20,895 nucleotides of DNA. Origin: a virus (lineage: Duplodnaviria; Heunggongvirae; Uroviricota; Caudoviricetes). Below the pieces are notes generated by a model, which ran no database searches, was not told where the DNA came from, and saw nothing but the letters and a program-made list of their open reading frames with translations. Position 1 is the stretch's first letter; every line of letters begins with the position of its first letter. Positions 2,388-18,276 of the stretch are shown here, piece after piece. Both the position numbers and the translations under genes were made by a program. The stretch is from the IMG/VR virus record IMGVR_UViG_2703718846_000002; one strand, written 5' to 3'.

Positions 2388-3484
2388 TCCTCAAAGGCCG
2401 TTACGCTGATTTTGGACCTACGTTTGCGTGCGAAAAATTGCGCGAGATACACGGTTTATCTTTATCCGTTGAAACTCTCAGAAAGTGGATGATAGAAGAG
2501 GGGTTATGGCGTGAACGCCGTCGTAAAATTGCCCGTATATATCAACGCCGCATGCGACGACCATCTTACGGTGAACTGATCCAGATTGATGGCTCACCTC
2601 ATGACTGGTTTGAAAATCGAGGCCCCAGATGTACACTGATCGTTTTCATTGATGATGCCACCAGTGCGTTGATGGCGTTGCGTTTTGTGCCTGCTGAAAC
2701 AACCCGGGCTTACATGGAAACCCTCCGGGGTTACCTTAATGATCATGGCGTACCGCTCGCTCTCTACTCTGATAGACACAGTATATTCAGGGTAAATAAC
2801 CCAGAGCGGGAAGGTGAGCTGACCCAGTTCACTCGTGCGATAAAGACACTGGGCATCGAGCCAATCCATGCCAACAGCCCGCAGGCAAAAGGGCGGGTAG
2901 AGCGCGCCAATCAGACACTACAGGACAGGCTGGTCAAAGAAATGCGGCTTCAGAATATCAGTGATATTGAAACAGCAAATGCATGGTTGCCGACCTTTAT
3001 TGAAGCCTATAACAACCGGTTCGCTACGTCGCCTCGTACTACTGATAATGCTCATCTTGATGTGCACCATTCTGAAGAGGAACTGGGTTATATCTTCAGC
3101 CTACAGGCGAAGCGCGTTCTGTCTAAAAATCTCACTTTCCAGTACAAAAGCAGTGCGTTTCAGGTACGCAGTGAGGGCCGGGGATATCGACTTAGGCATT
3201 CGGTTGTTACTGTATGCGAGAACTTTGACGGTGAAATTAACGTTCTGTATGACGGGAAAGCGCTGGGCTGGGAAAAGTATGTTGATGGCCCGGAGCCTAT
3301 ACCACTGGATGATGAAAAGAGTGTCCATGAACGAGTGGATAATGCCCGTATTGATTTACGCTCAAAATACTATGTTAAACCTAAAGCTGACCATCCCTGG
3401 CTTACGCGCCGAACGCAAAGTCATCAGCAAGTTAAGCCCCCGAAGTTACCTAAAAAGAAGCCTGATCCCGATAAAAAAGATTGA
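2258..3484 (+). CDS. DDE-superfamily transposase/integrase-core protein, probably a 5'-truncated IS remnant (IS481/ISNCY-like)
   Basis: DDE triad context IQIDGS ... YSDRHS ... SPQAKGRVERANQTLQDRL (E-x-x-N-x-T-L signature). The N-terminal part of the ORF is an out-of-frame read across the exonuclease upstream region, so the real N-terminus with its HTH seems to be missing. No terminal inverted repeats were identified. Confidence 0.55.
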   Translation: MGDLPSRQFHYRYCDADCRQCSPCVDVQRLPFPPDHLPELQPSLLKGRYADFGPTFACEKLREIHGLSLSVETLRKWMIEEGLWRERRRKIARIYQRRMRRPSYGELIQIDGSPHDWFENRGPRCTLIVFIDDATSALMALRFVPAETTRAYMETLRGYLNDHGVPLALYSDRHSIFRVNNPEREGELTQFTRAIKTLGIEPIHANSPQAKGRVERANQTLQDRLVKEMRLQNISDIETANAWLPTFIEAYNNRFATSPRTTDNAHLDVHHSEEELGYIFSLQAKRVLSKNLTFQYKSSAFQVRSEGRGYRLRHSVVTVCENFDGEINVLYDGKALGWEKYVDGPEPIPLDDEKSVHERVDNARIDLRSKYYVKPKADHPWLTRRTQSHQQVKPPKLPKKKPDPDKKD

Positions 3485-13903: not shown

Positions 13904-13974
13904 GAGGTTGCCCTGTATTCAGTGTCGCTGATTTGTATTGTCTGAAGTTGTTTTTACGTTAAGTTGATGCAGAT

Positions 13975-14290
13975 CAATTAATACGATACCTGCGTCATAA
14001 TTGATTATTTGACGTGGTTTGATGGCCTCCACGCACGTTGTGATATGTAGATGATAATCATTATCACTTTACGGGTCCTTTCCGGTGATCCGACAGGTTA
14101 CGGGGCGGCGACCTCGCGGGTTTTCGCTATTTATGAAAATTTTCCGGTTTAAGGTGTTTCCGTTCTTCTTCGTCGTAACTTAATGTTTTTATTTAAAATA
14201 CCCCCTGAAAAGAAAGGAAACGACAGGTGCTGAAAGCGGGCTTTTTGGCCTTTGTCGTTTCCTTTCTCTGTTTTTGTCCGTGGAATGAAC
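13975..14290 (+). other. Lambda-type cos site (cosQ-cosN-cosB) with the 12-nt cohesive-end sequence GGGCGGCGACCT at about 14103..14114
   Basis: Reads ...GATCCGACAGGTTACG GGGCGGCGACCT CGCGGGTTTTCGCTATTTATGAAAATTTTCCGG..., near-identical to the lambda cos junction as recalled, immediately upstream of the Nu1 start. Confidence 0.85.
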
Positions 14291-14291
14291 A

Positions 14292-14837
14292 ATGGAAGTC
14301 AACAAAAAGCAGCTGGCTGACATTTTCGGTGCGAGTATCCGTACCTTTCAGAACTGGCAGGAACAGGGAATGCCCGTTCTGCGAGGCGGTGGCAAGGGTA
14401 ATGAGGTGCTTTATGATTCTGCCGCCGTCATAAAATGGTATGCCGAAAGGGATGCTGAAATTGAGAACGAAAAGCTGCGCCGGGAGGTTGAAGAACTGCT
14501 GCAGGCCAGCGAGACAGATCTCCAGCCAGGGACTATTGAGTACGAACGCCATCGACTTACGCGTGCGCAGGCCGACGCACAGGAGCTGAAAAATGCCAGA
14601 GACTCCGCTGAAGTGGTGGAAACCGCATTCTGTACTTTCGTGCTGTCGCGGATCGCAGGTGAAATTGCCAGTATTCTCGACGGGATCCCCCTGTCGGTGC
14701 AGCGGCGTTTTCCGGAACTGGAAAACTGACATGTTGATTTCCTGAAACGGGATATCATCAAAGCCATGAACAAAGCAGCCGCGCTGGATGAACTGATACC
14801 GGGGTTGCTGAGTGAATATATCGAACAGTCAGGTTAA
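14292..14837 (+). pseudogene. nohA: Terminase small subunit Nu1 homolog interrupted by an in-frame TGA at 14727..14729
   Basis: 145-aa ORF MEVNKKQLADIFGASIRTFQNWQEQGMPVLRGGGKGNEVLYD... matches lambda Nu1. After the TGA the same frame continues [35 protein letters not shown] to a TAA, restoring a 181-codon Nu1. Confidence 0.8.
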
Positions 14838-17013
14838 CAGGCTGCGGCATTTTGTCCGCGCCGGGCTTCGCTCACTGTTCAGGCCGGAGCCACAGACCGC
14901 CGTTGAATGGGCGGATGCCAATTACTATCTCCCGAAAGAATCCGCATACCAGGAAGGGCGCTGGGAAACACTGCCCTTTCAGCGGGCCATCATGAATGCG
15001 ATGGGCAGCGACTACATCCGCGAGGTGAATGTGGTGAAGTCTGCCCGTGTTGGTTATTCCAAAATGCTGTTGGGTGTTTATGCCTACTTCATAGAGCATA
15101 AGCAGCGCAACACACTTATCTGGTTGCCGACGGATGGTGATGCCGAGAACTTTATGAAAACCCACGTTGAGCCGACCATCCGTGATATTCCTTCGCTGCT
15201 GGCGCTGGCCCCGTGGTATGGCAAAAAGCACCGGGATAACACGCTCACCATGAAGCGTTTCACCAATGGGCGTGGCTTCTGGTGCCTGGGCGGTAAAGCG
15301 GCAAAAAACTACCGTGAAAAGTCAGTGGATGTGGCGGGTTATGATGAACTTGCTGCCTTTGATGAGGATATTGAACAGGAAGGCTCTCCGACGTTCCTGG
15401 GCGATAAGCGTATTGAAGGCTCTGTCTGGCCAAAATCCATCCGTGGCTCCACGCCCAAAGTGAGAGGCACCTGCCAGATTGAGCGTGCAGCCAGTGAATC
15501 CCCGCATTTTATGCGTTTTCATGTTGCCTGCCCGCACTGCGGGAAGGAGCAGTACCTTAAATTTGGCGACAAAGAGACGCCGTTTGGCCTCAAATGGATG
15601 CCGGATGATCCCTCCAGCGTGTTTTATCTCTGTGAGCATAATGCCTGCGTCATCCGTCAGCAGGACGGAACGTTTAAGCCAGCATACAGCAACAACATGG
15701 CCTGGTGTCTGTGGGATATGCTGACCCACCCGCGCTACGGCATGGGTAAACGTCTTGGTGCGGCAGATGTGGATAAATGGGCGCTGTATGTCATCGGCCA
15801 GTGTTGCGACCAGTCGGTGCCGGACGGTTTTGGCGGCACGGAGCCGCGCATCACCTGTAATGCCTGGCTGACCACACAGCGTAAGGCGTGGGATGTTCTC
15901 AGTGATTTCTGCTCGGCGATGCGCTGTATGCCGGTATGGAACGGGCAGACGCTGACGTTCGTGCAGGACCGACCATCAGATAAGGTGTGGACCTATAACC
16001 GCAGTAATGTGGTGATGCCGGATGATGGCGCGCCGTTCCGCTACAGCTTCAGCGCCCTGAAGGACCGCCATAATGCCGTTGAGGTGAACTGGATTGACCC
16101 GGATAACGGCTGGGAGACGGCGACAGAGCTTGTGGAGGACACGCAGGCCATTGCCCGTTACGGTCGTAACGTCACGAAGATGGATGCCTTTGGCTGTACC
16201 AGGCGGGGGCAGGCGCACCGAGCCGGGCTGTGGCTGATTAAAACGGAACTGCTGGAAACGCAGACCGTGGACTTCAGCGTGGGTGCCGAAGGGCTTCGCC
16301 ATGTACCAGGTGATGTCATTGAAATCTGTGATGATGACTATGCGGGGATCAGCATCGGCGGGCGCGTGCTGGCGGTGAACAGCCAGACGCGGACACTGAC
16401 GCTCGACCGTGAAATCACGCTGCCATCCTCCGGCACCACGCTGATAAGCCTGGTTGACGGGCAGGGTAATCCGGTGAGCGTGGAGGTCCAGTCCGTCACC
16501 GACGGCGTGAAGGTGAAAGTGAGCCGGGTTCCTGACGGCGTTGCCGAGTACAGCGTGTGGGGGCTGAAGCTGCCGACGCTGCGTCAGCGCCTGTTCCGCT
16601 GTGTGAGTATCCGTGAGAACGATGACGGTACGTATGCCATCACTGCCGTGCAGCATGTACCGGAGAAAGAAGCCATCGTGGATACCCATAGTGTTAGCGG
16701 TACGGCTGCTTCAGCCGGTGCACATACCCATTCGATGACATTTGTTTCAGGTGGTTCCAGTGGTGCTCCGGGAAGTGGATCACCTGATTATTCTAAATAC
16801 AGTGTTAACACTTCTTCTGCAGGCGCTCATACGCACTCTGTATCGGGTACTGCTGCAAGCGCAGGTGCACACGCACATACTGTCGGTATTGGTGCTCATA
16901 CGCACTCCGTTGCGATTGGTTCACATGGACATACCATCACCGTTAACGCTGCTGGTAACGCGGAAAACACCGTCAAAAACATCGCATTTAACTATATTGT
17001 GAGGCTTGCGTAA
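14812..17013 (+). pseudogene. stfQ: In-frame chimera: terminase large subunit A N-terminus, internal segment of tail-tip protein J, side-tail-fibre C-terminus
   Basis: Residues 1 to about 284 ([19 protein letters not shown] ... CVIRQQ) match lambda gpA. The next segment ([28 protein letters not shown] ... [10 protein letters not shown]) matches internal lambda J. The last ~110 aa (GAHTHS repeats ... [11 protein letters not shown]) match the side-tail-fibre C-terminus. Junctions lie near 15663 and 16683. Confidence 0.8.
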
Positions 17014-17588
17014 TGGCATTCAGAATGAGTGAACAACCACGGACCATAAAAATTTATAATCTGCTGGCCGGAACTAATGAATTTATTGGTGAAGGTGACG
17101 CATATATTCCGCCTCATACAGGTCTGCCAGCAAACAGTACCGATATTGCACCGCCAGATATTCCGGCAGGCTTCGTGGCTGTTTTCAACAGTGATGAGGC
17201 ATCGTGGCATCTCGTTGAAGATCATCGGGGTAAAACGGTTTATGACGTGGCTTCCGGCGACGCGTTATTTATTTCTGAACTCGGTCCGTTACCGGAAAAT
17301 GTTACCTGGTTATCGCCGGGAGGGGAATATCAGAAGTGGAACGGCACAGCCTGGGTGAAGGATACGGAAGCAGAAAAACTGTTCCGGATCCGGGAGGCGG
17401 AAGAAACAAAAAACAGCCTGATGCAGATAGCCAGTGAGCATATAGCGCCGCTTCAGGATGCTGTGGATCTGGAGATCGCAACGGAGGAAGAAACCTTGTT
17501 GCTGGAAGCCTGGAAAAAGTATCGGGTGTTGCTGAACCGTGTTGATACATCAACTGCACCGGATATTGAATGGCCAGCACTGCCGTAG
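17013..17588 (+). CDS. tfaQ: Tail fibre assembly protein
   Basis: 191-aa [42 protein letters not shown]...; its start overlaps the stop of the fibre remnant (TAATG). Confidence 0.85.
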
Positions 17589-17685: not shown

Positions 17686-18276
17686 TTATATGTCAGGTGT
17701 CTGAAGTTTTGCTTTGGCTCTTAAAATGGTTTGCCGCGAGGTTTTGAATTCCCGGGCAATGGCACTTATACTTACACCTGACTTAATTCGTTCGAATACC
17801 ACCTGTTTCTGTTCTTCATTTAACACAGGTGGTCGACCAAAACGTTTCCCTGCGCCGCGGGCTCTTACTATCCCGGAATGAGTGCGTTCAAGTAAAAGGT
17901 CTCGTTCAAATTCAGCGACTGCTGAAATTACGTGCATCATCATTTTTCCTGTTGGACTGGTCAGGTCAATGCCCCCCAATGCTAAGCAATGCACTCTGAT
18001 ACCTGTTTCGGTCAGTTGTTCCACTGTTTTCCTGATATCCATTGCATTACAACCAAGGCGATCCAGTTTTGTCACAATCAATTGATCACCACATTTCAGG
18101 CGAGCAAGCAACCGGTTAAAACCAGGACGCTCACTGGTTGCTGCTGAGCCGCTAATGTGTTCTTCGATTATTTGCTGAGGTTTGATTTTAAAACCTGCAC
18201 TTTCGATTTCCCGGCGTTGATTTTCGGTGGTCTGATCCAGCGTTGATATCCGACAGTAAGCAAAAATTCGAGACAT
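17686..18276 (-). CDS. pinQ: Serine recombinase/DNA invertase Pin (Gin/Hin/Cin family)
   Basis: 196-aa [23 protein letters not shown]... with the catalytic Ser in the N-terminal RIS motif and a C-terminal HTH. Confidence 0.9.

Follow-up and report, generated by a model that had tools for sequence, protein, structure and literature searches.

A terminase, tail-tip and side tail fibre reading frame in the Escherichia coli prophage Qin, very probably joined by two chance in-frame deletions

The 733-codon open reading frame (ORF) at positions 14812-17013 of the window, by which we mean the whole analyzed stretch of 20,895 nucleotides (IMG/VR record IMGVR_UViG_2703718846_000002), joins pieces of three lambdoid late genes, those of terminase large subunit A, tail-tip protein J, and side tail fibre stf. 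It is very probably a chimeric pseudogene of a decaying Qin late operon, left behind by two deletions that kept the reading frame by chance, and has no likely function. Its placement between the rspB and ydfJ sides identifies the window as Qin, a cryptic lambdoid prophage of E. coli, and at least 80% of the window's length is covered at one place in 583 complete genomes. Upstream of the chimeric ORF lie ynfO, ydfO, gnsB, cspI, and then nohA, and downstream follow tfaQ, pinQ, ydfK, and ydfJ. The features of the region, in window positions, are:

14292..14729, + strand: nohA (Nu1 homologue), 145 aa left by R146* (nonsense at 14727-14729, C to T, CGA to TGA)
14812..17013, + strand: chimeric ORF A::J::stf, 733 codons, 2,202 bases; very probably a deletion-derived pseudogene
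14812..15665, + strand: terminase large subunit A, nt 1-854 (aa 1-284), from alignment to lambda and B379 Qin
15663..15665, strand not applicable: junction 1, microhomology GGA, common to A nt 852-854 and J nt 780-782
15663..16684, + strand: tail-tip protein J, internal block nt 780-1801 (aa 261-600 of 1159; 340 aa), from alignment to lambda and B379 Qin
16682..16684, strand not applicable: junction 2, microhomology ATA, common to J nt 1799-1801 and stf nt 2777-2779
16682..17013, + strand: side tail fibre stf, nt 2777-3108 (C-terminal 109 aa, aa 927-1035), from alignment to B379 Qin
17013..17588, + strand: tfaQ, tail fibre assembly gene, intact, its start overlapping the stop of the chimeric ORF (TAATG)
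17686..18276, - strand: pinQ, DNA invertase, a resolvase-family recombinase, as a context gene

The ORF listing gives a GTG start at 14812 and a TAA stop at 17011-17013. By DNA alignment the former is the native start of A, lambda nt 711, and the latter is the native stop of stf, overlapping the ATG of tfaQ. The sequence-only reading of the window had described the ORF as fragments of A, J, and stf with native start and stop and had put the switches near 15663 and near 16683. Alignments to lambda and to the Qin prophage of E. coli B379 agree with that composition, and DNA alignment proves both positions exact; with the ORF set against A, J, and stf of lambda and of B379 Qin, the junctions are placed to the base, with 3 bp of microhomology at each. 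The gene phases match at junction 1 and at junction 2, so both joins are in frame. Protein comparisons gave the same picture. In the Pfam scan, GpA_ATPase (PF05876) covers aa 47-285 of the ORF (profile positions 3-237 of 247, E = 2.4e-50) and a Phage-tail_3 domain, typical of J proteins, covers aa 354-521. The J origin of the middle block, on which the sequence-only reading hinged, is borne out by a Protein Data Bank search in which residues 285-626 match residues 261-602 of lambda gpJ (8iyk_J, 1132 aa) with E = 8e-230. In the same search, residues 657-733 match the C-terminal tip of the T4 long tail fibre gp37 (2xgf_A positions 166-242, E = 9e-23), and the stf block carries repeated GAHTHS motifs. 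The J block also holds an antisense ORF of 237 aa (window 15976-16689, - strand), a frame that stays open for 358 aa in the J fragment of strain P13-6; we take it for the long antisense frame that G+C-rich genes commonly show, not for a gene.

The progenitor state is preserved in E. coli B379, whose Qin late operon is complete (nohA, A, W, B, C, D, E, FI, FII, Z, U, V, G, T, H, M, L, K, I, J, lom, stf, tfaQ). Against this prophage the window falls into three collinear blocks: the J and stf blocks show no mismatches, and the block running from upstream through A shows six, all of them upstream of the ORF, so that all 2,202 ORF bases are identical to three B379 segments. Relative to B379 Qin, the first deletion spans A nt 855 through J nt 779 and is 14,696 bp long; lost with it are the remainder of A, every gene from W to I, and 779 nt at the 5' end of J. 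The second, 5,190 bp long, spans J nt 1802 through stf nt 2776, and with it went the 3' portion of J, all of lom, and the greater part of stf. Short microhomology without an associated element is the usual mark of illegitimate recombination. Crossover by an invertase at a gix- or pix-like site was considered as the cause of the junctions and rejected: a search with the gix consensus, allowing up to eight mismatches, found no site in the window and a single poor eight-mismatch match in B379. In the favored explanation, an ancestor with a complete B379-like late region (nohA, A, W, B to J, lom, stf, tfaQ) underwent two illegitimate, microhomology-mediated deletions of 14,696 bp and 5,190 bp that together cost it some 20 kb of genes for head and tail. 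At each deletion chance put the flanking genes in one frame, with the result that the native A start reads through to the native stf stop, and the deletions are so recent that the ORF is unchanged at every base.

The same does not hold for the gene upstream. The A start had been described as overlapping Nu1, which in the window is not the case: R146* ends the nohA frame at 14729, 83 nt short of the A start at 14812, and because of this stop the start no longer overlaps a translated Nu1 frame. The 3' end of nohA (bases 14730-14837) is no longer translated, and translational coupling between nohA and A, if it ever operated, has probably been lost in the window. Further missense changes in nohA are I19F and R70L. 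One other recovered locus (L006) has the identical chimera with an intact nohA, and the fusion therefore preceded the decay of nohA, a succession that fits an unconstrained operon; the nonsense and missense changes in nohA point to decay of the operon, not to its upkeep. The substitutions private to the window form a cluster of five within 814 bp (13914-14727), namely 13914 C>T, upstream of ynfO, and in nohA I19F, a synonymous change at E65, R70L, and R146*; beyond this segment the window and L006 differ once across the remaining ~11.4 kb compared. Import of the five substitutions from another allele is not supported, the best complete-genome match differing at all five and four of the five private bases being absent from eight reference alleles including lambda. 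The cluster may have come from new mutations close together or from a patch of an allele not yet sampled, and selection on the region after the fusion could also cause it.

The chimeric allele is confined to a tiny clade. The protein forms a singleton cluster at 90% identity and was traced to six draft E. coli contigs; three of the four recovered loci with the chimera are identical to the window over the whole overlap, up to 16 kb, and the fourth, L006, differs from it at six positions. Neither junction 1 nor the window's junction 2 is present in 5,426 complete E. coli genomes, in which the junction 2 region occurs only as a different junction, of the type of strain P13-6, with 269 bp extra. 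As the allele is known from draft assemblies only, and as E. coli genomes harbor several lambdoid prophages whose A, J, and stf resemble one another, a mis-join between prophage repeats could be imagined. Such an artefact is, however, hardly credible: identical junctions are found in at least four separate assemblies with contigs of up to 313 kb, the 3-bp overlaps are far too short to mislead an assembler, and both flanks are collinear with Qin. Equally remote is a normal mosaic tail or terminase gene of functional phages, an idea that could draw on the mosaicism of lambdoid phages and on the ordinary name of the exact 733-aa protein in NCBI ("phage terminase large subunit family protein," elsewhere "hypothetical protein"). 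The sequence-only reading would have given way had intact phages carried the same continuous gene, but in 50,697 phage records no single place spans 80% or more of the ORF, the best matches being to the J block alone, and in the intact Qin the blocks are separate genes with 14.7 kb and 5.2 kb of canonical genes between them.

A more serious question is whether the in-frame chimera was kept since its translation or its product is useful. The openness of the ORF says nothing on selection, because no substitution has occurred since the deletions; the two in-frame joins alone therefore need explaining, and the prior for them is 1/9. For a base rate, we mapped the Qin late-region remnants of ten other strains (P13-6, TB06053, NCTC9040, FDAARGOS_1337, 1303, 789, K-12 MG1655, PE164, P15-25, and 17MR471) against B379, strain 1303, and strain 789. 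The independent gene-to-gene deletion junctions in these strains are:

K-12: A to stf, in frame
789: W to H, in frame (ORF continuity and blastp)
TB06053: C to G, in frame
NCTC9040: B to J, in frame
PE164: A to stf, in frame
P13-6: A to L, L to J, and J to stf, out of frame
TB06053: nohA to A, B to C, and H to J, out of frame
FDAARGOS_1337: nohA to J, out of frame
1303: A to E, out of frame
P15-25: A to stf, out of frame
17MR471: nohA to J and J to stf, out of frame

In-frame junctions thus make up 5/16 (31%), which is the chance rate (probability of at least 5 of 16, given 1/3, 0.66). When whole architectures are counted, 3 of 10 keep a frame open between A start and stf stop (K-12 stfQ, PE164, and the window ORF) against 1.5 expected, a small and nonsignificant excess (P = 0.17). 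The sequence-only reading had left the choice between chance preservation and a product that is tolerated or used. Chance is favored by the junction rate, the lack of substitutions, and the rarity of the allele; toleration is trivially true, and nothing found supports use.

A useful chimera, which we consider very improbable, could work in two ways. Unbroken translation into the TAATG could couple tfaQ and shield the transcript from Rho polarity, or a protein combining A ATPase, J, and Stf tip could, as a dominant-negative decoy, bind the Nu1, tail-tip partners, or Tfa that superinfecting lambdoid phages bring in. Both would sit well with two in-frame joins that preserve the native start and stop, with the three A-to-stf architectures, with the retention of a near-complete ATPase domain and a gp37-like tip, and with a tfaQ that is intact in every Qin variant examined. 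Yet the excess of such architectures is nonsignificant and the junction rate that of chance, and the P13-6 type, the commonest near-identical variant, has all its junctions out of frame and nevertheless keeps tfaQ. The absence of substitutions since the fusion leaves no signal of purifying selection, the allele is limited to its few draft contigs, and the upstream nohA is being destroyed in the window lineage. Nor is there promoter-like enrichment: around the ORF we counted 7 promoter-like sites against 5.3 +/- 2.2 in shuffled sequence. A dedicated promoter of the ORF was rejected on that count, and the Qin late promoter, lying far upstream, would have to supply any transcript.

The product keeps nearly all of the gpA ATPase domain and lacks A aa 285-641, the C-terminal endonuclease and portal-binding part, which went with the deletion of A nt 855-1926; the deleted part is annotated as "gpA endonuclease subunit" in the copies of other strains, and the Pfam scan found no second gpA domain in the 733-aa ORF. 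The J fragment is without the N-terminal aa 1-260 and the C-terminal aa 601-1159, and the receptor-binding end of lambda J lies in the C-terminal part. Only the final 109 residues remain of the 1035 in stf, without the N-terminal attachment domain and the shaft. Judged from these domains, the product cannot be expected to package DNA, build a tail tip, form a fibre, or do any other parental job. Most likely the chimera is a harmless pseudogene with little or no expression. Sequence comparison shows its origin, junctions, frames, and rarity and the base rate of in-frame junctions; its lack of function and low expression are inferred. Co-option, for instance to keep tfaQ translated or as a decoy against incoming lambdoid phages, we regard as very unlikely. 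Much the same applies to the broader suggestion that the in-frame Qin chimeras reading from A start to stf stop (the window ORF, K-12 stfQ, and PE164) are weakly favored, through tfaQ expression or interference with the assembly of superinfecting lambdoid phages, the clustered nohA hits being a secondary adjustment to the fusion; this, too, is a long shot.

Qin is known to vary in size from 11 to 97 kb among strains, and rearrangement is known to create new ORFs in "grounded" prophages (PMC6379469). In the literature on stfQ and Qin we found no description of the A::J::stf chimera. It is ordinary prophage decay, comparable to K-12 stfQ and an instance of a known process, and what is new here is just an additional allele. 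Its limited value lies in being a clean, fully reconstructed case of deletional decay in a cryptic prophage, with the progenitor, both deletions, and their microhomologies identified. It also illustrates that neither a long intact ORF in a prophage remnant nor a name such as "terminase large subunit family protein" is proof of a functional gene. If it were true that the product acts against incoming lambdoid phages, this would be a modest addition to prophage-encoded interference; nothing found points there.

The surrounding clade offers a wider view of such deletions. Five deletion architectures, those of TB06053, NCTC9040, FDAARGOS_1337, P13-6, and the window (L010, L011, L012, and L001, against window 14292-17100), derive from one ~100%-identical, B379-like intact Qin (L014). 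Many independent deletions have stripped this B379-like clade of its late operon, at a pace well above that of point substitution. Some end points recur: three left ends fall at nohA nt 507-509 (after ...GAACTGATA; L010:1829, L012:3858, and L017:1299), two right ends at J nt 631/632 (L011:3853-3856), and two right ends at stf nt 2597-2599, just before the conserved MRGWTIKG (L015:2357-2360 and L017:4520-4526). These recurring end points may be hot spots or may reflect serial deletions; the window's own end points lie outside the recurrent set.

Among known loci, the nearest parallel is stfQ of K-12 (b1547), which likewise arose by a late-operon deletion at the identical Qin locus, reads from the A start (GTG AAT AT.) in frame into the C-terminal part of stf, and has the same C-terminus and a native stop overlapping tfaQ. 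Its N-terminus consists of the first three A codons (VNI) in frame with stf. Unlike the window ORF, with its two junctions and its 284 A, 340 J, and 109 stf codons, stfQ has one junction (A nt 9 to stf) and ~317 stf codons, without an ATPase or J block. The adjoining K-12 nohA (b1548) has 189 aa vs. 181, its 3' end reading across the A-stf junction. K-12 stfQ is the same kind of in-frame accident. PE164 provides another in-frame Qin chimera from A start to stf stop (WP_269441489.1, 517 aa; L015:1313-2866), composed of A aa 1-349 and the stf C-terminus; it differs from the window ORF in lacking a J block and in having just one junction, between A nt 1048 and stf nt 2599. In RefSeq it is a "phage terminase large subunit family protein," the name shared with the window protein, with no pseudogene label.

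The window's closest relative is the commoner P13-6-type remnant, found in at least 39 complete genomes, which shares with the window a B379-like progenitor and has 100% identical flanks and J and stf alleles. It consists of 246 nt of A, 147 nt of L, 1072 nt of J, and 302 nt of stf, and its three junctions, unlike those of the window, are different and all out of frame; in the PGAP annotation it appears as four pseudogene fragments. Its J piece is 300 nt longer and its stf piece 30 nt shorter than the window's. Derivation of either allele from the other was considered and rejected, as each retains sequence missing in its counterpart: the P13-6 type keeps more of J and less of stf than the window. 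In lambda, finally, the matching parts of A (nt 711-1564), J (nt 16284-17305), and the 3' end of stf (orf-401/orf-314) show 97%, 93%, and 91% DNA identity to the window blocks, but there A, J, and stf remain complete and apart from one another, three genes within a span of about 21 kb.
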